From an uncultured Candidatus Saccharibacteria bacterium (GTDB taxonomy: Bacteria; Patescibacteriota; Minisyncoccia; Phycocordibacterales; UBA2100): a DNA stretch of 46,063 bases. This document shows, piece after piece, positions 23,530 to 38,125 of this stretch (its first letter is position 1; every line of letters begins with the position of its first letter). Location of the stretch: assembly GCA_964512835.1 (NCBI GenBank), contig CAZELA010000002.1, positions 171,037 through 217,099 of the forward strand, given 5' to 3'. The position numbers and the translations under genes were made by a program. The notes under the pieces are model-generated. The model was given only the letters and a program-made list of their open reading frames with translations. It was not told where the DNA came from and made no database searches.

Positions 23530-23658
23530 CGAACACTCCCCATTGGTTATCCGGCTTTTTGTACCCTATGCCCAACCGTTTGCGCAGTCAAATAGGGCGG
23601 GGCTGCGACGTTTGCCGATAGCTTGATGAGCTATTCATATATATGCATAATGCTGCCC

Positions 23659-26478
23659 ATGAAAGGCCCGCTCATCGCTATGAGCATCGCCGCAGCGCTC
23701 TGCGCTCCTTTGGTTGCGTCGGCGGCAGTGATTCTGGAGCAGCCCGACTTTTCACAGTTTGAGCAGATTGTGGGCGACACTCCGCAGTTTTTTAGCGGCG
23801 CATCGCAGCGAACGCCGTCGCTTGAGTCGCTGTTCACGGCGACGGGCACGGTCCGCCGTGCGACCGTGCGGTTCGACATGCTTGATTGGCCGACTGCGGA
23901 TCATCAGATGCAGGCGTATCTGTATGAATGTCCGCTCGCTCCGGACCCGAACCTTAGTCAGTGCCGACGAGTTGTGGCAAAAGACACGGCGCTCGGGTGG
24001 GAGGAAAGCGGCGTTATACACCCGGCTAACTGGGACCCGGAGGGCGGAGAATTTTCTATTGATTTTACGCACGCCACATCGTTTGGATTCCAGGGACCCG
24101 ATTACGAGGGCGGCGTGCCGCTCTATCCGAATCGGGGATACCGACTTGAAATCGTGTTTCAGCCGAACAGCTATACGTCCAAAATATTCGGCGCGTACAG
24201 CACGACGACCGGAGGCTTTAACCCGTTCTTCCGACTCGAAGGGGATGTGCCGACATCTACACCCGCAACCACAACCCCCGAATGCACCGTCGACTGCAAT
24301 TCAAATGTGATGTTCCTGCCGGGTATCGAAGGGAGTAAGTTGTTTGTTGCGGGCCTTCTCACTGAAAATTCGATCTGGTTACCCAATAGTTTTATAGGAT
24401 CTGATTTGCCAAATCTGGACCTCAATAACCCGGAAGCGGTGAATGTAGTATTCACAAAGCCGACTGAGATTATACGCACTGCATACCAGGTTTATGACGT
24501 TTACGCGGGTCTCGAAGGGAGAATGAACGATATTAAACAGCAGGGGAAAATTAATGACTGGGCTGCGGTCGCGTATGATTGGCGACTCGATCTGAATAAT
24601 CTTCTGGACTACGGGGCTCAAACGAGCGACGGCAATATTTACTACAGAGGCGCATTTTCAAGCACCTCTTCTCCATATATTGCCCAGGAACTGAGGGCGC
24701 TAGCTATAAGCTCTCGGACCAAAAGAGTAACGATCATTGCTCATTCGAATGGCGGGCTTTTAGCGAAGATGATTCTTTCACGCCCTGAACTTGCGCAATA
24801 TGTTGATCGAGTCATTTTTATAGACACACCGCACGATGGTACTCCGCAAGCAATCGGCGGTCTGCTCCACGGATTCAACATGGCGCTTCCAAAGGAATAT
24901 TTACCACTTTTTCTTTCCGATGCTGATGCGCGATACCTAGGGAAGACAACACCGATGTCCTACAATCTTTTGCCATCCTCGGCCTATTTTCAAAACTCGA
25001 ATCAGCCTGTTGTTTCATTTGACCCTGCGACCTTACCCGAATGGGTTCAAAAGTATGGTGCGACTATCTCAACTGAGGCGGGATTGCGTCAGTTCATGAC
25101 CGACGCAAGTCGCGAAACACCTGAATATTCCAACACAAGACTGCCCGCAATCACTCCGTCGTCTATGCATCAAAGCGCTGCAACTACGCACGCGCAGATC
25201 GACAACGTAAATATCCCGAATAACGTCGAGGTCATCTCGATCAGTGGGTGGGGTAAAAACACTCTGTCGAGTATTAAATATGAAAAGTTGCCCGCTATTA
25301 TCTGCGAAATAAGAGCCATCGACGGCAGTTGTGTTGCAGGCGCGATTCAGAATCAGATTACTTATGAGCCGCAACTGGTTCTCGATGGTGACGGAACAGT
25401 CGTCGCTACAAGTCAGCAATGGACGGGAGGTCCGAATACGCAGTACTGGATCAATTTGTATGACCTCAATGAAGCGGCTGGCTCAAATTACAGTCACGCG
25501 AATATCTTGGAAGTGCCTCAGGCACAAGATTTACTTAGCAGATTACTGACGGGCGCATCGACCAGTAGTTTGCCGGCGTATGTCAGTACCTCGAAACCGC
25601 AAATAGGCAATTCATTTGAGCGCTTACTTTTTATATTGCATTCACCGCTCACATTGGGGTTTTCGGATAATAATGGGCGTTTCTCGGGATCACGCCCCGC
25701 AGGCGTAGCTTTCGAGATTCCGGGTGTGGAATATAAGCGAGTTGGCGAGGTTCAATGGCTTTCGGTCCCGAAATCGATGGCCGGCAGGGTAGTTATGCAG
25801 GGAGTGGGTAGCGGGTCGTTCGCGCTCGATGTTATAGAGAAAACGGGAGATACTGTATTCGCGCGCACAACATTTGCTGCGATAGATTCAGCCACAACGA
25901 CGGTTGCGCAGTTCGGCGTAAAACCGACCGAACACCCGGCCGTACAGGGCACGCTGGTCGTTGATGTAAATGGTGATGGCAATCCGGAGAAAACTCTACG
26001 ATCTGTGAACGGGGCAATCGTTCTACCGGATTTTGACGCACCGGAAGTATCCATAACCATCAGTACTTCAACGAAAGATTTGGTTTTGCGCGGGCTTGAC
26101 TTGTCATCGACAACGGTTGCTAAAAGTGCGACGACTACGGTAATCACGGATTCGTCGGGTAATAAGACCACTGTGTTTTTTCAGAAGCAGTACAAGGGAA
26201 ATTTCTTGACCTATGCACGGATGACGGGAATTAATTACGGCACATCGACCGCCGCATTACCAACATCATTCTTGTACGTGTGGGACGGTAACGAGCCGAT
26301 AAGCCAGACCGTAGTCGTAGATAAGACATTTGTGGTGCAGGCGCTATACGATAAGAGAAACAAGAAAACGACCATTGTGGTCCTAAAAAGAGGTGTGCCA
26401 ATTCAAACCACGACGCTTACAGGGTTGCGGGTCATTAATCTTGAATCTAAAAAAGGTGCAGTTTATTACTCATGGTAA
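23659..26478 (+). CDS. large secreted alpha/beta-hydrolase (LCAT/PGAP1-like lipase/esterase domain) protein
   Basis: Signal peptide MKGPLIAMSIAAALCAPLVASA; FLPGIEGSKL and nucleophile elbow IIAHSNGG; long beta-rich C-terminus. The ORF opens earlier (23623) but a -10 abuts ATG 23659. Confidence 0.78.
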   Translation: MKGPLIAMSIAAALCAPLVASAAVILEQPDFSQFEQIVGDTPQFFSGASQRTPSLESLFTATGTVRRATVRFDMLDWPTADHQMQAYLYECPLAPDPNLSQCRRVVAKDTALGWEESGVIHPANWDPEGGEFSIDFTHATSFGFQGPDYEGGVPLYPNRGYRLEIVFQPNSYTSKIFGAYSTTTGGFNPFFRLEGDVPTSTPATTTPECTVDCNSNVMFLPGIEGSKLFVAGLLTENSIWLPNSFIGSDLPNLDLNNPEAVNVVFTKPTEIIRTAYQVYDVYAGLEGRMNDIKQQGKINDWAAVAYDWRLDLNNLLDYGAQTSDGNIYYRGAFSSTSSPYIAQELRALAISSRTKRVTIIAHSNGGLLAKMILSRPELAQYVDRVIFIDTPHDGTPQAIGGLLHGFNMALPKEYLPLFLSDADARYLGKTTPMSYNLLPSSAYFQNSNQPVVSFDPATLPEWVQKYGATISTEAGLRQFMTDASRETPEYSNTRLPAITPSSMHQSAATTHAQIDNVNIPNNVEVISISGWGKNTLSSIKYEKLPAIICEIRAIDGSCVAGAIQNQITYEPQLVLDGDGTVVATSQQWTGGPNTQYWINLYDLNEAAGSNYSHANILEVPQAQDLLSRLLTGASTSSLPAYVSTSKPQIGNSFERLLFILHSPLTLGFSDNNGRFSGSRPAGVAFEIPGVEYKRVGEVQWLSVPKSMAGRVVMQGVGSGSFALDVIEKTGDTVFARTTFAAIDSATTTVAQFGVKPTEHPAVQGTLVVDVNGDGNPEKTLRSVNGAIVLPDFDAPEVSITISTSTKDLVLRGLDLSSTTVAKSATTTVITDSSGNKTTVFFQKQYKGNFLTYARMTGINYGTSTAALPTSFLYVWDGNEPISQTVVVDKTFVVQALYDKRNKKTTIVVLKRGVPIQTTTLTGLRVINLESKKGAVYYSW

Positions 26479-30565: not shown

Positions 30566-31108
30566 ATGTTCAACAACGCCGCAATCCTGCACATGCTACT
30601 TTGGCCGGGAGTAATTCTCGTTGCGATTCTTGTGGTGGTAGGAGTAGCATCAATTTTTTTCAAAAAATCTGGCGAGGCAGAATCGGATGCGGACAGAGCA
30701 AAGCCAAGGTACAACTACACCGCCAAGAAGTTCTTCATGACTCGTGCGGAGCACGAGTTTTACGACGTCCTCGGACAGGCGGTTGGGCACGAGTTTCGAA
30801 TCTTCGCGCAAGTGCACATCTCGGAACTCGTAGACGGTAAAATCCCAGGCCAGAACTGGAAAGCCGCACGTGCCCATATCGATAGAAAATCAGTCGACTT
30901 CCTGCTCTGCGACAAAGACTACATTTCGCCAAGACTCGCTATTGAGGTTGATGACAAGACGCACGAACGACCAGATAGGGTAGATCGCGACACCGAAGTT
31001 GAGCGAATTCTGGCGCTGGCCGACCTTCCGCTCCTTCGCGTCCAAAACACGGGTGCTTTCGATCCCGAAACCATCGCCAAAATGGTCCACCAATCGCTCA
31101 AATCGTAA
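30566..31108 (+). CDS. membrane-anchored DUF2726 (PD-(D/E)XK nuclease-like) protein
   Basis: FFMTRAEHEFYDVL, RIFAQVHISELV, SVDFLLCDKD...LAIEVDDKTH motifs; N-terminal TM LLWPGVILVAILVVVGVASIFF. Confidence 0.78.
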   Translation: MFNNAAILHMLLWPGVILVAILVVVGVASIFFKKSGEAESDADRAKPRYNYTAKKFFMTRAEHEFYDVLGQAVGHEFRIFAQVHISELVDGKIPGQNWKAARAHIDRKSVDFLLCDKDYISPRLAIEVDDKTHERPDRVDRDTEVERILALADLPLLRVQNTGAFDPETIAKMVHQSLKS

Positions 31109-31177
31109 CGTTTCCGCAAAGTGAAGATTTGTGGGATGATCCTAGCTAATTGGATCGAAAAGATCCTGCTATTTTCA

Positions 31178-34100
31178 ATGAATTCAGAACGAATAATAAA
31201 CAATAGTCAGCAAAACAACCTGTACCAGGCTATTTCGAACGCGATCACTGATGAGACGACAGCCGTAGACATTGAGGTCGGATACTTCTATCTTTGTGGC
31301 TTCGAATTGCTAGCCGAAAAACTCAAAGATTTACCTGTGCGCATTCTTGTAGGCTCGTATATAGACCCGGATGCGATTCCCGATCTAATTATAGAGTCGA
31401 CAAAGAAGCCAACGGTCAACCTTGATCCATATCAACCGAGGAGCATCCCCAATTCAAAGTCGAAGCGCGTAGATGCCCTTGCTGAAGGAATAAAGAAACT
31501 TGCGAACCAGACAGCGATCTTTGATGCGCCCGAATCTCAAGGCGCCTACAAAATACTCGAACAGAAGTTGGAAAATGGGACGCTAGAGATAAAGATGACG
31601 GAGCAGCATGCCCATGGCAAGTACTACGTCATTCACAAAAGGCCGCATGGAGTAGTCTATATGGGTTCTAGCAATTTCACTTACAGTGGGCTTATTGGTC
31701 AGCAGGAAGTTAATGAGGTGTTTGACGGTGAGGACAAATATAAAGAATACGCCGCATATTTCCAGGAACGCTGGATTAATGGGGGCAATATTGCAGTGCA
31801 GGAGAAAGGTAACTCCGACATGTTTCTCAACAAGATTCGGAGCGAGTTATGGATGAATGTAGTTCCGCGCCCGTACGCAATGTATGTCCGACTATTGGAT
31901 CAAATATTCGGTACCGAAGAACAGAGTGAGATTATTTCGCCGAAGACAGCAACAAAGGGGCAGTACAGCGACTACTCCTATCAGCTCGATGCGATAAAGA
32001 TGGCGTTAGTGCGTTTGAAGAATTTCGATGGCGCTATTGTTGCAGACGTTGTGGGCTTGGGGAAAAGTGTAATAGCGAGCGCCGTTGCTGCAAATCTACC
32101 ACAACTCAAGCCCATTATAGTGTCGCCACCCCACCTAGTCCCTATGTGGGAGGACTACGCTGAAGAATTTAGACTAGCAGGCCACAAGGTCTTCAGCACG
32201 GGCTTAATTGAGGATGCCTATGAGAAGTATAAGAACTCTCGCGAACCATTACTCCTAATCTTGGACGAAGCACATCGCTATCGCAACGAGGAAACTCACG
32301 ACTATCAGATGCTTCACCAGCTGGCTCGTAGTCATCAGGGAAACAAAGTCATGGTTTTGTCGGCCACCCCATTCAACAATGATCCAAAAGATATTTTTGC
32401 ATTAATAAAGCTATTCCAAACTCCCGGTGCCGCGACGCTTCGCACGGTTGATAACCTCTCAGTTAAGTTTCTCGAGCTTGAGAAGCAATACAAGGGCTTG
32501 CGTCGCAGGTTATCGGACGGCGTAAAAGACACTGCTGAACAGCGACAATTGGATGAAGAAAGGGACTCAATAGCGTCTGAACTACGCAGGCTTATTGCAC
32601 CGCTCATTATTCGCAGATCCCGAATAGATCTGACGACCATAAAACGATATCGCGAAGATCTTGCGGCGCAGGGAGTGGAGTTTGCGAAGATGGCTGATCC
32701 CGTGCTCCGCGAATACGAACTGGGTGATCTTGCTGATATCTACCTCGACACCATTTCCAAAATTGAACCGAACTCAAAGATGCGCGAAGGACTGACGGGC
32801 GCTCGATACATGCCTACAACGTACGCTAATGATGTGGCCGGTTTTGTTGAAAAATATCCTGAACTAGAAGACATCCGTACAGCTCAGAAGAACGTCGCAT
32901 CATTCATGCGAAAGTTACTAGTCATGCGCTTCGAGAGTTCGCGTGCTGCATTCAAGAGTACTCTTGGTAATGTCATCGCATCCCACGAAAGGATATTGGA
33001 ATGGGCTGAGAAGAAGCAGAAGGTGCCGATCTCGAAGAAGGCATATATCCCTGCGCCGGACGAAACACCTGATGAAGCATCCGAAATCGCTGAGCAAGAG
33101 ACTTCGGTCGAAGAGGAAACGATACCCGCGGCACGTAAGATAGTATTTGTAGCGTTGGACGACTTGAAAGAGAGCTTCGTCAGTGATGTGAGGCACGATC
33201 GCGACACGCTCAAAAATCTATACGAGCAATGGTTTAGTTCGGAATCGGCTTATTCAAAGATGCCGGACCCGAAGCTGGAGCGTCTCTTGCAAGACCTCAG
33301 AGAACATCGAGAGAAAGATCCGGATCGAAAAATAGTTGTTTTCAGTATGTACGCAGATACCGTGAACTACGTCGGTGAAGCACTGCTTGACGCCGGCATC
33401 CCTACCTTCGTCTACACATCTGCAAACTCACGAGCGGATCGAGTGACTATTAGAAAGAATTTCGACGCAGGCCTCCCGGCAGATAAGCAGGCAGACGATT
33501 TCAAGGTCATTGTTGCTACTGACGCCTTGAGTGAGGGAATAAGCCTGCACCGGGCCGGACGGATCATCAACTACGACATTCCCTATAACCCTACTCGGGT
33601 AGTTCAGCGTGTCGGGCGCATCAATCGAATTAGTAAGAAAATGTTTGATGAGTTGTATATCGACAACTATTTCCCGACGGAAGTGGGCGAGGCAGAGGTT
33701 AATGTTCGCGGTATATCGACCCTGAAGATAAAAATCTTCAACGCAGTTGTCGGCAGTGATTCGCGTACCCTCACACCTGACGAGGATCCGGTATCGTTCT
33801 TCAAAGACGAGTTTGAGCGAGCAACATCGGAGGATATGAGTTGGGATGCGCCACATAGAGATGCTTACGACGTCGCAAAGCGCAACGATGATCTCATAGC
33901 TGAGGCAAGAAGATTGCCCATGCGCTCCCGATTAGTCCGTATTGATAAGGAAAAAAAGTGCACTGTAGGCGTGGGAATGAAAGGTGAAAATATTATCTGC
34001 GCTATTGAGGTGGATGGCGCGGCACGATTGGTCAATACCGAAGATGCATTAAGGTTGTTTTTGGCAATGCCGGAGGAGGCGGGAGAGGGCGCTGACATCC

Positions 34101-34459
34101 AATTCGATCAGGTATTTGAGCTCATCAAGGCTCGATTATTCGAAAGACCGCCTGTTGCACAAATGTCCGGCAACAGAACCGAGGTGGTACGCATTCTGAG
34201 AAGTGTCAAAGATGAAACGCAATTCGGTAATTACTGCGATGATCTCATACTGGTAGTGAGCGAACTCGACGACCTTTCAGATGGGCAGATGAAAGCAATC
34301 ATCAAGGAAGCAAAGGACACCAGTGTATCAGTTGATGACTTAGTAAAGAAGATTATCGAGATCGCGCCAGAGCGACAGGTTGCGGTAAGTATGGAGCGAC
34401 AAGGAAAGGAGCAGAAAGCATCTAACGTGCTGCTCTTCACACAAGAGCACCGCATATGA
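31178..34459 (+). CDS. HKD/PLD-family nuclease domain fused to SNF2-type SF2 helicase
   Basis: One HxK...GSxN motif (HGKYYVIH...GSSNFT, nt 31613-31675). Helicase motifs I VGLGKS (32054), II LDEAH (32264), III SATP, VI QRVGRINR. The ORF opens at GTG 31121, ATGs at 31136 and 31178; start uncertain. Confidence 0.88.
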   Translation: MNSERIINNSQQNNLYQAISNAITDETTAVDIEVGYFYLCGFELLAEKLKDLPVRILVGSYIDPDAIPDLIIESTKKPTVNLDPYQPRSIPNSKSKRVDALAEGIKKLANQTAIFDAPESQGAYKILEQKLENGTLEIKMTEQHAHGKYYVIHKRPHGVVYMGSSNFTYSGLIGQQEVNEVFDGEDKYKEYAAYFQERWINGGNIAVQEKGNSDMFLNKIRSELWMNVVPRPYAMYVRLLDQIFGTEEQSEIISPKTATKGQYSDYSYQLDAIKMALVRLKNFDGAIVADVVGLGKSVIASAVAANLPQLKPIIVSPPHLVPMWEDYAEEFRLAGHKVFSTGLIEDAYEKYKNSREPLLLILDEAHRYRNEETHDYQMLHQLARSHQGNKVMVLSATPFNNDPKDIFALIKLFQTPGAATLRTVDNLSVKFLELEKQYKGLRRRLSDGVKDTAEQRQLDEERDSIASELRRLIAPLIIRRSRIDLTTIKRYREDLAAQGVEFAKMADPVLREYELGDLADIYLDTISKIEPNSKMREGLTGARYMPTTYANDVAGFVEKYPELEDIRTAQKNVASFMRKLLVMRFESSRAAFKSTLGNVIASHERILEWAEKKQKVPISKKAYIPAPDETPDEASEIAEQETSVEEETIPAARKIVFVALDDLKESFVSDVRHDRDTLKNLYEQWFSSESAYSKMPDPKLERLLQDLREHREKDPDRKIVVFSMYADTVNYVGEALLDAGIPTFVYTSANSRADRVTIRKNFDAGLPADKQADDFKVIVATDALSEGISLHRAGRIINYDIPYNPTRVVQRVGRINRISKKMFDELYIDNYFPTEVGEAEVNVRGISTLKIKIFNAVVGSDSRTLTPDEDPVSFFKDEFERATSEDMSWDAPHRDAYDVAKRNDDLIAEARRLPMRSRLVRIDKEKKCTVGVGMKGENIICAIEVDGAARLVNTEDALRLFLAMPEEAGEGADIQFDQVFELIKARLFERPPVAQMSGNRTEVVRILRSVKDETQFGNYCDDLILVVSELDDLSDGQMKAIIKEAKDTSVSVDDLVKKIIEIAPERQVAVSMERQGKEQKASNVLLFTQEHRI

Positions 34460-37400
34460 ATCTACAAGCCAAGTACTCTGAAAGGGAATTTTCTGAATTC
34501 GTAAGCTCGCATCTACCCGATTTTCGACCGACCGATTCCCGAGTAGAAGTGAGAAGGGGTTTCAGCAGTGTCAAACAAATTGGAGAATCACTGAAGCTCG
34601 ATCTGGTCGTGTTTACAGTAACGCCGGACGCAACCATCCATGCTCGCATTGAGATATCGAAACAGTCATACGCTTTGCTAAAAAATCATCCAAGAGCTCA
34701 TGCACTAATTGCATACCACTCTCCAGAATCCGACGAATGGAGGCTTTCTCTCGTGACGACCCAAGTAAGTCGCGACAAGAACGGTGTAAAGGAGACGGTG
34801 TCCAATCCGCGACGGTTCTCATATGTCCTGGGCCCCAAAGCGAAAGTGAATACACCCACTAAGTATTTGATTGCGAAAGGAAAGATCGGAGATCTAAATG
34901 ACCTGAAAGAACGATTCTCTCTCGAGGTTGTTAATAAGGATTTTTATGCCGAAATTTCCAATTTGTTTACTAAGCTCACTGGCGGTACTCACACGATTGG
35001 TAGAGCCAAGAAGGAATACAAGGCGATGATTCAACTTCCGTCGGTGCCCGAGGGCGATCAAAGGAATCTAGAGTTTACCGTGAGGCTAATAGGGCGTGTC
35101 ATTTTCTGTTGGTTCCTTCGCGAGAAGAAGAGTGCCGCAGGGCTATCATTGATGCCGAGGGAACTACTATCGCAACAGGCCGTAAGTAATCAAAGTGATT
35201 ATTACCACTCGATTTTGGAGCCTATATTTTTTGAGGTTTTAAACAAGCACGGCAAGAGTAGACGGGAACAGTATGCAACCGGCCCTTTCGCAACCATCCC
35301 GTATTTGAATGGCGGTCTCTTTTCACCATCCTATGATGATTATTTTAGTTACAACACGGATAAGCAATCCATTTTTCATAACACGGTAATTATTCCAGAC
35401 GAGTGGCTCGTGGAATTCATTTCATTTTTGGAGACATACAATTTCACTATTGATGAGAACGTCAGTTTTGATGAGGAACTCTCCATTGATCCTGAAATGC
35501 TCGGCAGGATCTTTGAAAACCTCCTTGCAGAAATTAGCCCGGAAACCGGCGAATCAGCAAGAAAGCGTACGGGCAGTTACTACACACCCCGATCAATCGT
35601 GGACTACATGGTTGATGAAGCCCTGTTCTCTTATCTGAAATCGCAGACTGCTTTACCAGACGAAAAGCTGCGTGCCATTATCAGCTACGATCTCGATGAT
35701 GATACCGAACACCCCCTCTCGGCAGAAGAGTACAATAAGATTGTAAATTCGCTCAGCACTATCAAAATTCTTGACCCTGCATGTGGGTCCGGGGCGTTCC
35801 CGATTGGTGCGTTGCAAAAAATTGTATTCATTTTGCAGCAGGCCGATCCCGATGGTCGCCAGTGGTTTGAGAAACAAATAGCCAATACATCGCCTGAAAT
35901 CAAACGTGTTATCGAGCGAGAGTTTGCAAATAAGAACTTCAATTACATCAGAAAGCGCGGCGTTATACGAGAAAACATCTTTGGCGTGGATATCCAGCCA
36001 ATTGCCACAGAGATTTCAAGGCTTAGATGTTTCCTGACCCTCATCGTTGATGAGAGCATTCACGATGAGCTGGAGAACAGAGGTGTTGAACCTTTGCCTA
36101 ATCTAGATTTCAAATTCGTTACGGCAAACACGCTCGTTCAATTGCCCGGGAAAACGGAGCAATCACTATTCAAGGACCAAAAAAGAATTGATCAGCTCCG
36201 AGATCTCAGGAATCAGTTCTTCGGATCCACAAATTCGGAAAGACAACAGTTACAGTTAGATTTCAAAGAGATACAGAACCAAATGTTGAATCGAATGATT
36301 GAGCTCGGGGGTGCTGATGAGATCACAAGAACACTTTCGACATGGAATCCTTTTAGTCACAATGCCACTCCATGGTTCGACCCGGAGTGGATGTTCGGAG
36401 TCAGAGATTTCAATGTTGTGATAGGAAACCCACCTTATGTCTTTGCAAGAAATAGTAAATCGAAAGGGCTTAGTAAAGAACAGAAGGACTTCTACTATGA
36501 GAATTTCAAGCTTGCAAAATACCAAATAAATTTATATGCGCTCTTCCTGGAGAAGAGTACGACATTACTCGACGATAAAGGAGTACTCTCATTTATTGTG
36601 CCGAACAATTGGCTTACGATAAACACGAATAAGGATATGCGTGAATTTATCCTTGGCTTTTCCAATGTCGTCATAGTCAATTTTTATGCAAGGGTGTTTG
36701 TTTCCGCGAGCGTAGACAGTTCCGTAATCGTCTTTTCCAATGGGACCCATCATCATGAGGTCTCCTTATATGAATACGACGACGACCAGAAGCTGCAATT
36801 GATCAAGAAAACAGATACTTCGTATTTTCTCAAAAAAACAGACGCAATCATTAATATTAGCGCCCTCAAGAATACCGAAGTCGGTGAACTAGTTGAGAAG
36901 ATTGAGTCTCGTGCCATACCTTTAAACAAATTGGCTGACGTGAAAGCGGGATTGCAGGCATACGAGGTAGGTAAGGGAACGCCGGCAATAACGGAAACTA
37001 TGAAGGATGAGCGTGTCTATCACAGCGCTGAGAAAAAGGACGATTCTTATTACAAATATCTCGATGGACGCGACGTTCAGCGATATTCGTTTGGATGGAG
37101 CGGCGACTATTTGAAATATGGTAATAATCTGTCAGCTCCGCGGAATTTCCATCTTTTCTCGACGCCGCGGATATTGGTAAGACAAATTCCTTCGCAGCCA
37201 CCCTATTGCATACCGGCTTGTTATACAGAGGAAACAATTCTGAACGACAGAAACTCTATGAACGTGGTCAATATTAAAGACGATCCACTTTTTCTACTTG
37301 GAGTTTTGAATTCAAAGATTATTACTTTTTGGTTCATCCATAAATTCGGGAAGCTTCAGCGGGGGATATTCCCACAATTCAAAATCAATGAACTAGAGGG

Positions 37401-37611
37401 CTTTCCGATCCCTAATGTGAGCCCGGAGAAAAAGGCCGCGATTGCTAAACTGGCCGCAAGAATATTGTTTGAAAAAAAGAAGAATATTGACGCTGATACG
37501 ACTGAACTGGAAAGCTGCATAGACGACCTGGTGTTAGACGCATTTGATCTGACCGAAAAGGAGCGGGCGCTGATTAGAAGTGAGGCGCTACCTACTGCAG
37601 CCGCGGAATAG
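34456..37611 (+). CDS. PglX/Eco57I-like gamma-class N6-adenine DNA methyltransferase with TaqI-like C-terminal specificity domain
   Basis: Motif X GSYYTPR, motif I ILDPACGSGAF (35773), FGVDIQP, motif IV VIGNPPYV (36427). C-terminal VKAGLQAYE...LDGRDVQRY...LLGVLNSKI...INELEGFPIP. The ATG overlaps the helicase TGA (ATGA at 34456-34459). Confidence 0.9.
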   Translation: MNLQAKYSEREFSEFVSSHLPDFRPTDSRVEVRRGFSSVKQIGESLKLDLVVFTVTPDATIHARIEISKQSYALLKNHPRAHALIAYHSPESDEWRLSLVTTQVSRDKNGVKETVSNPRRFSYVLGPKAKVNTPTKYLIAKGKIGDLNDLKERFSLEVVNKDFYAEISNLFTKLTGGTHTIGRAKKEYKAMIQLPSVPEGDQRNLEFTVRLIGRVIFCWFLREKKSAAGLSLMPRELLSQQAVSNQSDYYHSILEPIFFEVLNKHGKSRREQYATGPFATIPYLNGGLFSPSYDDYFSYNTDKQSIFHNTVIIPDEWLVEFISFLETYNFTIDENVSFDEELSIDPEMLGRIFENLLAEISPETGESARKRTGSYYTPRSIVDYMVDEALFSYLKSQTALPDEKLRAIISYDLDDDTEHPLSAEEYNKIVNSLSTIKILDPACGSGAFPIGALQKIVFILQQADPDGRQWFEKQIANTSPEIKRVIEREFANKNFNYIRKRGVIRENIFGVDIQPIATEISRLRCFLTLIVDESIHDELENRGVEPLPNLDFKFVTANTLVQLPGKTEQSLFKDQKRIDQLRDLRNQFFGSTNSERQQLQLDFKEIQNQMLNRMIELGGADEITRTLSTWNPFSHNATPWFDPEWMFGVRDFNVVIGNPPYVFARNSKSKGLSKEQKDFYYENFKLAKYQINLYALFLEKSTTLLDDKGVLSFIVPNNWLTINTNKDMREFILGFSNVVIVNFYARVFVSASVDSSVIVFSNGTHHHEVSLYEYDDDQKLQLIKKTDTSYFLKKTDAIINISALKNTEVGELVEKIESRAIPLNKLADVKAGLQAYEVGKGTPAITETMKDERVYHSAEKKDDSYYKYLDGRDVQRYSFGWSGDYLKYGNNLSAPRNFHLFSTPRILVRQIPSQPPYCIPACYTEETILNDRNSMNVVNIKDDPLFLLGVLNSKIITFWFIHKFGKLQRGIFPQFKINELEGFPIPNVSPEKKAAIAKLAARILFEKKKNIDADTTELESCIDDLVLDAFDLTEKERALIRSEALPTAAAE

Positions 37612-37753: not shown

Positions 37754-38125
37754 ATGAAGAAAAATGCTCCGAAGGACACGATGGGGAGGTTGCAGGATTC
37801 GGTGGTGAAATTCCGCGATGCGCGCGACTGGAAGCAGTTTCATAATCCGAAGGACACGAGCCTGTCGCTCGTCCTCGAGGCGGCGGAGCTGATGGAGCAT
37901 TTTCAGTGGAAGAATCCCGAGGAGATCGAGGCGTATTTAAAGACCAACAAGGACGACGTCGCCGAGGAACTGGCCGACGTGCTCTACTGGGTGCTCCTGA
38001 TCGGCCACGATCTGAATATCGACATCCCAAAGGCATTCAAAGCCAAGCTCAAGAAAAACGATGAAAAGTATCCTGTCGAGAAGTCCAAAGGACGACACAG
38101 CAAATATACCGAATACCAAAAGTAG
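37754..38125 (+). CDS. MazG-like nucleotide pyrophosphohydrolase (small all-alpha NTP-PPase)
   Basis: RDWKQFHNPKDTSLSLVLEAAELMEHFQW and EELADVLYWVLL motifs. Confidence 0.85.
   Translation: MKKNAPKDTMGRLQDSVVKFRDARDWKQFHNPKDTSLSLVLEAAELMEHFQWKNPEEIEAYLKTNKDDVAEELADVLYWVLLIGHDLNIDIPKAFKAKLKKNDEKYPVEKSKGRHSKYTEYQK

Follow-up and report, generated by a model that had tools for sequence, protein, structure and literature searches.

We analysed a 46,063-nucleotide (nt) stretch of the genome of an uncultured Candidatus Saccharibacteria bacterium (GenBank assembly GCA_964512835.1, contig CAZELA010000002.1, positions 171,037 to 217,099), hereafter the window, and report that two of its genes, between nt 31121 and 37611, probably encode a two-subunit ATP-dependent restriction-modification (R-M) system. 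Gene 1 encodes a phospholipase D (PLD)-like nuclease domain fused to a Swi2/Snf2 ATPase, and gene 2 encodes an MmeI-type N6-adenine methyltransferase with its own C-terminal target-recognition domain. Such a system would resemble a Type ISP enzyme split over two chains, or the MANTIS (Gao_RL) system without its AAA+ loader. An ATP-dependent R-M system is generically expected to have a cognate methyltransferase gene beside that of a nuclease-ATPase and a specificity domain that varies, all of which the pair has. A first-pass annotation, made from the DNA letters alone, had proposed a self-contained two-gene module of this type; the intact motifs, the obligate pairing and the failure of any third gene to recur are all in line with that proposal.

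Domain architecture of the two proteins

Both open reading frames (ORFs), their ATGA overlap and every motif listed in the first-pass annotation were found where it had placed them (Table 1). It had taken gene 1 to begin at nt 31121; the ORF does extend that far, but an alignment with 14 homologues favours the ATG at nt 31178, which is most likely the true start.

The N-terminal 200 residues of the gene 1 product had been described as an HKD-type PLD domain, and Pfam models of PLD nucleases indeed match there, among them the N-terminal PLD domain of RE_NgoFVII (1.4e-5). H165, K167 and G182-S-S-N185 of the single HKD motif are invariant in the 15 aligned sequences (window and 14 homologues), and among 104 homologues the histidine and lysine are kept in 99 and N185 in all 104. 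For a protein with one HKD motif, dimerisation is needed to build a PLD active site, as in Nuc, BfiI and SauUSI.

The remainder of the protein carries the SF2/Snf2 motif set that had been recognised at the outset, and both lobes of the ATPase match Pfam families (Table 1). GLGKS, DEAH and QRxGRINR, including Q829, G832, R833 and R836, are invariant in the 15-sequence alignment, and the ATPase motifs are kept in 99/104 homologues. In a Foldseek comparison, the best Protein Data Bank (PDB) match of the AlphaFold2 (AF2) model was Escherichia coli RapA (2e-15, over more than 1000 alignment columns), followed by Chd1, SWR1, ISWI, Rad54 and Hef. Therefore, gene 1 encodes a genuine RapA-like Swi2/Snf2 ATPase. 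Swi2/Snf2 ATPases move along double-stranded DNA. Helicases of the RapA-like kind have been reported for BrxHII and BREX-related helicases (PMC12839542). No modified-base reader domain such as DUF3427 was detected in the gene 1 product with Pfam. Residues ~905-1112 likewise matched no Pfam family; this C-terminal region is a candidate partner-binding or regulatory region.

The gene 2 product had been called PglX/Eco57I-like. The Eco57I part of that assignment stands (Pfam: Eco57I, 5e-32; TaqI_C, 1e-19; N6_Mtase, 2e-14), but an MmeI-type assignment fits better than PglX. A family profile compared with the PDB matched CamA-like, BseCI, BrxX/PglX, M.TaqI and MmeI, the first four through the methyltransferase and recognition domains. 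With a profile of residues 1-340, the helical spacer of MmeI was the sole match, and therefore the gene 2 scaffold is MmeI-type. The connector also weakly matches Pfam MmeI_hel and DUF7814, and the best PADLOC model for the whole protein is REase_MTase_IIG (1e-77). The motifs of the methyltransferase core are kept in ~99-103 of the 104 homologues. The sites of MmeI-type enzymes are asymmetric and become methylated on one strand (PMC3874165).

In the gene 2 product, residues 1-135 occupy the place of the MmeI endonuclease. The AF2 model of this domain (pLDDT, the predicted local distance difference test, 85) consists of a helix, three strands, a helix and three strands; it has no PDB fold match at E<=1e-3, and residues 1-266 have no PDB sequence match. 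The earlier observation that the methyltransferase contains no nuclease motif holds across the family, as no D...ExK nuclease triad is conserved in this domain among the 104 homologues: D49 is present in 65 and a lysine at position 56 in 17, while E54 is kept in 81 and is T in the window protein. R64, R96, S98 and S116-N-x-x-R120 are nearly invariant. A nuclease in the gene 2 N terminus was thus considered and found unsupported by sequence, profile and fold searches, the resemblance to a restriction-endonuclease core being confined to the order of the secondary-structure elements. In an exhaustive search of 1.84 billion representative proteins, the domain was found in 348 clusters and, fragments aside, always as residues 1-140 of proteins of ~1000-1250 residues; thus, the domain belongs specifically to this family of methyltransferases. 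The window methyltransferase is stored as a gene call of 952 residues, ~99 fewer than the ORF; this call appears to have missed the family-specific N-terminal domain, as homologues align from residue 1.

The two genes form an obligate pair

The stop codon of gene 1 and the start codon of gene 2 share the 4-nt overlap ATGA, which couples the two genes translationally. The same overlap is present in the closest relatives (77-82% identity), and the two genes overlap or lie <=30 nt apart in 91/103 homologous pairs, as measured from longest-ORF starts.

We scanned GTDB, with one genome per species, using gene 1, and kept the best 80 of more than 574 stretches (37-83% identity). These genome loci come from Saccharibacteria and other members of the candidate phyla radiation (CPR), Gammaproteobacteria, Planctomycetota, Bacillota, Bacteroidota, Elusimicrobiota, Actinomycetota and others. 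A gene 2 homologue, N terminus included, lies directly downstream on the same strand in 76 of the 80, and the remaining four stop at a contig edge, so that the methyltransferase follows in 76/76 testable loci. In the reverse direction, 80 metagenome loci were picked with the first 340 residues of gene 2. Of these, 70 have the helicase gene next to the methyltransferase gene: in 69 it lies directly upstream, on the same strand, and in one it is divergent. The remaining ten have <=644 nt of upstream sequence, and the helicase is therefore adjacent in 70/70 testable loci. Thus, the pair predicted to be syntenic is kept in every testable related locus, in both directions. The sole divergent locus (L134, 871-3930 on the minus strand) has a gap of 305 nt, and translational coupling is therefore not absolutely required.

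Clustering of all ORFs from the 80 genome loci revealed no third recurrent gene; DrmA/DrmB, PglZ, BrxC, DUF499 and DUF3780 are not among the recurrent genes. The DUF2726 gene directly upstream of the pair in the window had been suggested as a possible third component. A DUF2726 gene is near the pair in just 1/80 genome and 1/80 metagenome loci, so DUF2726 is not a component; the two loci (L047, where it lies just 3' of the methyltransferase gene, and L098) hint at a loose, non-obligate association.

Among 8,000 candidates that were scored, there were more than 3,000 clusters at 90% identity. The family is widespread over many phyla and frequent in CPR bacteria. In a phage collection, two distant matches only were found (~25% identity).

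In several Bacteroidota loci (L057, L058, L061, L064, L071, L073, L075 and L077), guest genes lie between the helicase and methyltransferase genes: RhuM, AlbA_2/Schlafen plus HATPase_c_4 (with or without a helix-turn-helix domain), or DUF2442. RhuM and AlbA_2-type genes also occur inserted in Type I R-M operons. In Parabacteroides, a TIR-domain gene neighbours the pair, which is a defence-island context.

The two genes co-diverge while the recognition domain diverges freely

For 104 helicase-methyltransferase pairs, we compared pairwise identities by Spearman correlation. Pairwise identities are not independent and the correlations are therefore descriptive only: helicase identity correlates with identity of the methyltransferase core with rho 0.70, with that of the gene 2 N-terminal domain with rho 0.77, the tightest of the regions, and hardly at all with that of the recognition domain, with rho 0.24. 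The mean pairwise identity is 0.24 for the recognition domain versus 0.44 for the core, and where the helicases share more than 60% identity, identity is 64% for the cores and 29% for the recognition domains. Moreover, DNA similarity of the window to the closest loci ends at ~nt 36440, just before the recognition domain. This pattern of variation, read from sequence comparisons, is the one expected of an R-M enzyme that swaps specificity modules.

Downstream of the methyltransferase gene, 4/103 loci carry spare recognition-domain copies that are partial and inverted (Table 1). They are 35-42% identical to the resident domain and look like invertible specificity cassettes, in agreement with programmed inversions reported for this kind of gene (PMC9881135). 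The window contains no inverted recognition-domain cassette.

The pair is a horizontally acquired island

The GC content of the window drops from 0.55-0.63 to 0.40-0.50 across ~31.1-37.7 kb, and this low-GC island consists of exactly gene 1 and gene 2. It is flanked by genes for PyrG, TypA, tRNA-Gln, MliC, a GDSL lipase and a glyoxalase, which make up an ordinary chromosomal region (flank GC 55-60%). The pair is carried on a horizontally acquired island of 6.5 kb. No convincing attachment sites or inversion repeats were found at the island borders, and a promoter scan returned fewer sites than expected by chance.

In the closest relatives of the pair, the neighbouring genes code for a large serine recombinase or an HTH_17 protein, or belong to a prophage. 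Serine recombinases of the large type, with Resolvase, Recombinase and Zn_ribbon_recom domains, lie beside the pair in L163 (14478-16058), L164 (9472-11052) and L165 (201-1607), as well as in 10 of the first 80 loci (e.g. L016, 1582-3261). Therefore, in the closest relatives the module rides on integrative elements or prophages, while in the window it consists of the bare two genes. L165 also has terminase and ParB-methylase genes.

Table 1. Features of the two-gene module, its neighbours and related loci. Positions are those of the window unless a locus is named; residue numbers of gene 1 refer to the longest ORF.
Feature	Position	Strand	Details
Gene 1, longest ORF	31121..34459	+	1112 aa from GTG
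Gene 1, likely true extent	31178..34459	+	~1093 aa; ATG start is M20 of the ORF
PLD-like nuclease domain, single HKD	31259..31774	+	aa 47-218; PLDc_2, 2e-11
HxK (H165-x-K167)	31613-31621	+	HKD motif
GSSN (G182-S-S-N185)	31664-31675	+	HKD motif
ATPase N-lobe	32054..32275	+	Walker A GLGKS 32054-32068; DEAH 32264-32275; SNF2-rel_dom, 5e-12; DEAD; ResIII
Helicase C-terminal lobe	33284..33631	+	aa 722-837; Helicase_C, 1.5e-16
QRVGRINR	33605-33628	+	aa 829-836
Gene 1 C-terminal region	33833..34456	+	aa ~905-1112; beta-sheet and helices; AF2 pLDDT ~75-87
ATGA stop/start overlap	34456..34459	+	seen directly in the sequence; couples gene 1 to gene 2
Gene 2	34456..37611	+	1051 aa from ATG; gamma-class N6-adenine methyltransferase with C-terminal recognition domain
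Gene 2 N-terminal domain	34456..34860	+	aa 1-135; family-specific; proposed coupling domain
Helical connector	34867..35337	+	aa 138-294; matches MmeI (5hr4) residues 108-263, E 1.7e-5
GSYYTPR	35572-35592	+	aa 373-379; methyltransferase core 35572..36438
S-adenosylmethionine (AdoMet) motif DPACGSGAF	35773-35799	+	aa 440-448
Catalytic NPPY	36427-36438	+	aa 658-661
Variable target-recognition domain	36826..37575	+	aa ~790-1040; TaqI_C aa 867-985, nt 37054-37410
Inverted recognition-domain copies	L028 7170-7619; L070 10872-11613; L076 10534-11429; L157 8391-9308	-	
DUF2726 protein	30566-31108	+	DUF2726, 2e-25; weak REase_MTES_1575 match; directly 5' of the module
Small MazG-like nucleotide pyrophosphohydrolase	37754-38125	+	PF12643, 7e-18; directly 3' of the island
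951-aa protein	23623-26478	+	sole matches: LCAT/PGAP1-like alpha/beta-hydrolase families, 4e-9

Comparison with known systems

MANTIS, which is the same as Gao_RL and the Type-2 BREX-related (BR) systems, comprises MtsA (DUF499 AAA+), MtsB (DUF3780), MtsC (N6-methyltransferase) and MtsD (HKD-Swi2/Snf2). The first-pass annotation had called the pair DISARM-like; this has to be revised, as the nearest characterised relatives are the HKD-Snf2 effectors of MANTIS. Such effectors define Type-2 BR systems (PMC12839542), and MtsD is a dimeric PLD-SF2 (superfamily 2) effector with one PLD site that acts downstream of the methyltransferase (bioRxiv 10.64898/2026.09.23.753747). Like MtsD, the gene 1 product consists of an N-terminal single-HKD PLD domain fused to an SF2/Snf2 ATPase with a RapA-like fold; the likeness is one of build. 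Partial matches of gene 1 include the PADLOC model HKD+Snf2 (8.6e-29) and HmaA. Unlike MANTIS, the system has two genes rather than four, and gene 2 brings its own recognition domain and a family-specific N terminus, in contrast to the loader-dependent MtsC. DUF499 (MtsA) had no match in the window ORFs scanned, ~8 kb either side of the pair, and was not recurrent in the 80 genome loci; DUF3780 (MtsB), which as a stand-alone gene is present in 98% of Type-2 BR loci (PMC12839542), was absent among the window neighbours and the recurrent gene clusters of related loci. Since the DUF499 loader and DUF3780 are absent, the pair is not a member of MANTIS.

The Type ISP enzymes LlaGI and LlaBIII contain, in the same order, a nuclease, an SF2 translocase, a gamma-class N6-adenine methyltransferase and a C-terminal recognition domain (PMC3874165). 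The window module would likely share their logic of an asymmetric site, one-strand methylation, translocation driven by ATP and remote cleavage. Unlike the single chain of Type ISP, however, the pair is split over two polypeptides whose genes are joined by the 4-nt overlap; its nuclease is of the PLD/HKD type, which implies dimerisation, instead of the Mrr/PD-QxK type; and its motor is Swi2/Snf2 and RapA-like instead of HsdR-like. In the motor-nuclease half, no sequence relationship can be detected. The pair is a functional analogue only of Type ISP, split into two chains.

With the MmeI family (Type IIG/IIL, including Cj0031-like enzymes), gene 2 shares the helical connector, the gamma-class core and the TaqI-like recognition domain. 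In contrast to MmeI, its N terminus has no D-ExK triad and no match to a solved nuclease, and gene 2 is obligately paired with an ATP-dependent motor-nuclease.

The overlap with class 1 DISARM lies in the PLD nuclease (DrmC), the SNF2 helicase (DrmD) and the N6-adenine methyltransferase (DrmMI); unlike in DISARM, the PLD and SNF2 parts form one fused protein, and DrmA and DrmB are absent. The top named matches are DrmD models for gene 1 (PADLOC, 5e-32) and PglX or DrmMI for gene 2. A check against curated models gave partial matches to named defence systems, with equivalog scores far below the cut-offs: the DrmD equivalog NF038317 scores 143 bits on gene 1 versus a cut-off of 610, over residues 576-856 only; phospholipD_antiphage scores 111 bits on gene 1 versus 1100; and the PglX equivalog NF033452 scores 89 bits on gene 2 versus 500. 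Moreover, DrmA/DrmB (DUF1998), PglZ and BrxC, already reported as missing from the window, were not found in the window ORFs scanned and none recurs in the 80 genome loci. Lacking DrmA and DrmB, and with a DrmD score under the threshold, the pair is not DISARM; as neither these genes, PglZ/BrxC nor any other third gene recurs, it is also not a decayed DISARM or BREX locus. An assignment to BREX itself was rejected, with PglX far below the cut-off and PglZ/BrxC absent.

SauUSI (Type IV) and CglI/NgoAVII resemble the pair in using an SF2 ATPase to drive a PLD nuclease. The SauUSI protein, a dimer, fuses a PLD nuclease and a helicase, has one PLD site and translocates on DNA (summarised in bioRxiv 10.64898/2026.09.23.753747); unlike the pair, it has its own modified-cytosine reader domain and no methyltransferase, and attacks modified DNA. 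The top 50 fold matches of gene 1 did not include it. In CglI, the helicase-like H-subunit is a separate protein to which the PLD R-subunit is coupled (PMC5861437), and CglI/NgoAVII differ from the pair in having the recognition domain on the nuclease subunit and a C5 methyltransferase.

A distant gene 1 relative (30% identity) is encoded on the Allomeiothermus silvanus plasmid pMESIL02 (L162; NC_014214.1, 99721-103098). In this locus, genes for a 787-residue DNA methyltransferase and a Dam-like methylase lie upstream of the helicase gene and no MmeI-type methyltransferase gene lies downstream; it may represent a different system built on the same effector.

Proposed mechanism and alternative explanations

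In the mechanism that we propose, the gene 2 product would read a short, probably asymmetric DNA site through its variable C-terminal domain and methylate an adenine there to N6-methyladenine (m6A), such that host DNA is marked as self, with hemimethylation expected. It would have no working nuclease, and cutting would be supplied by the gene 1 product, two copies of which would pair so that their single HKD motifs make up one PLD active site. When foreign DNA is unmethylated, the methyltransferase bound at its site would interact with the motor-nuclease and recruit or license it, probably via the domain of residues 1-135. The motor would then hydrolyse ATP to move along double-stranded DNA, and the cut would be made away from the site, probably favoured where complexes from inverted sites meet (compare Type ISP, Type III and MANTIS). 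With such an inverted-site rule, daughter chromosomes in the hemimethylated state would be spared, as they are by Type III, Type ISP and MANTIS systems. The details of this orientation rule are held less firmly than the overall model.

Several points weigh against an ATP-dependent R-M function. The family is known here from its genes; that the two proteins interact, hydrolyse ATP, cut DNA and bring about restriction is predicted. The AF2 model of the gene 1 product is of moderate confidence (pLDDT 69). MtsD, to which this protein is likened, has so far shown no nuclease activity in vitro (bioRxiv 10.64898/2026.09.23.753747). The gene 2 N-terminal domain may have an unconventional catalytic or metal-binding role in most members, as E54 is kept in 81/104. 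A precedent in favour of the model is a Prevotella 'Type IIG' enzyme, Pin17FIII, which is encoded with an upstream SNF2 helicase and, expressed alone in E. coli, forms m6A at GGYGAB (PMC5608340); it probably has the same architecture and may belong to the family.

On balance, we consider it unlikely that gene 2 encodes a complete Type IIG/IIL (MmeI-like) enzyme with a cryptic N-terminal nuclease, the PLD-Snf2 protein travelling with it as an accessory or reserve effector, or as a Type IV enzyme of its own that is similar to SauUSI. The best PADLOC model (REase_MTase_IIG, 1e-77), the homology to the MmeI connector, an alpha-beta-beta-beta-alpha-beta topology at the N terminus, compatible with a PD-(D/E)XK core, the frequency of E54 and the REBASE-based labels of such proteins as Type IIG or Type II R-M enzymes (PMC5608340, PMC9881135) would all be accounted for by such an enzyme. 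However, no D...(D/E)xK triad is conserved, with K56 in 17/104 homologues and E54 replaced by T in the window, and the N-terminal domain has no fold match to a solved nuclease at E<=1e-3. Moreover, two-way synteny across phyla, 4-nt overlaps and a rho of 0.77 would be unexpected for a dispensable accessory gene, and gene 1 lacks a modified-base reader such as DUF3427.

It is also rather improbable that the pair is guided by methylation but leaves foreign DNA undegraded, whether by blocking replication, as proposed for BREX, as an epigenetic regulator, or as an addiction or maintenance module of mobile elements. HKD residues intact in 99/104 homologues argue for a working phosphodiesterase, and swapping of recognition domains, guest genes of the R-M type and a defence-island context (the TIR neighbour in Parabacteroides) fit restriction. 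The serine recombinases and prophage genes beside the closest relatives would suit a maintenance module, but an addiction effect is a common by-product of true R-M systems. The invertible recognition-domain cassettes of some loci, comparable to phase-variable regulons (PMC9881135), and the failure of MtsD to cut DNA in vitro to date (bioRxiv 10.64898/2026.09.23.753747) are in favour of a non-degrading function.

Very improbable, and already largely refuted by the census, is a reading of the pair as what is left, or a minimal part, of a class 1 DISARM, BREX or Type-2 BR (Gao_RL/MANTIS) system that lost its other genes: DrmD (PADLOC, 5e-32; NCBIfam, 143 bits) and PglX/DrmMI are the best named matches and HKD-Snf2 effectors define Type-2 BR systems (PMC12839542), but these matches fall far below curated cut-offs (143/610, 89/500, 111/1100), DUF499, DUF3780, DrmA/DrmB, PglZ and BrxC are absent from the window, no third gene recurs in the 80 genome loci, and catalytic motifs intact in 99/104 pairs are not a pattern of decay.

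Taken together, a two-subunit ATP-dependent R-M system remains the probable reading of the pair. A more far-reaching proposal, which we regard as evenly balanced, is that the pair represents a distinct, widespread and unnamed type of ATP-dependent R-M system, especially common in genome-reduced CPR/Patescibacteria. In this type, an MmeI-derived subunit, whose former nuclease domain is now an adaptor, would directly recruit and license a dimeric PLD-Swi2/Snf2 motor-nuclease without an AAA+ loader, as a minimal two-protein form of the logic of MANTIS, BREX-related and Type ISP systems. The pair is not a categorically new mechanism.

Neighbouring genes

The DUF2726 gene 5' of the module has an intermediate GC content (0.52-0.53) and lies outside the island; a hairpin resembling a terminator is present between it and gene 1, at 31152-31166. 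The MazG-like gene downstream of the island has a host-like GC content. The window has a second low-GC stretch (GC 0.46-0.50 over ~24-27 kb), which codes for the 951-residue protein in Table 1. This protein matched no defence model, and its gene may be another horizontally acquired gene.

Prior notice and implications

Neither full-text searches nor papers on BREX-related systems, MANTIS, YprA, programmed inversion, Prevotella and CPR bacteria yielded a name for the two-gene system, and the searches yielded no study of its function. The first-pass annotation could not match the architecture to a named system, and as far as a name is concerned this holds; the architecture itself, however, was noticed in passing before (PMC9881135, Table 3; probably also PMC5608340), so it is less unprecedented than that annotation had thought. 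PGAP names the products 'SNF2-related protein' or 'helicase-related protein' and 'N-6 DNA methylase'; an example from Parabacteroides is annotated 'SNF2-related protein' plus 'N-6 DNA methylase'. The REBASE-based label 'Type IIG' used in the cited papers wrongly implies a cutter that acts at a fixed distance and independently of ATP.

If confirmed, the pair would fill a gap, as a two-protein union of a recognition and methylation subunit in the style of Type IIG/IIL with a PLD motor-nuclease in the style of MANTIS or SauUSI. Being much simpler than BREX, DISARM and MANTIS, it would offer a tractable model for how a site-bound methyltransferase licenses a translocating nuclease. It also bears on the reason for the additional AAA+ loader of other systems; the MANTIS preprint left both questions, that of licensing and that of the loader, open. 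Once the pair is recognised, annotation and the interpretation of methylomes would improve, and knowledge of it would help to predict barriers to transformation in Bacteroidota and other hosts.

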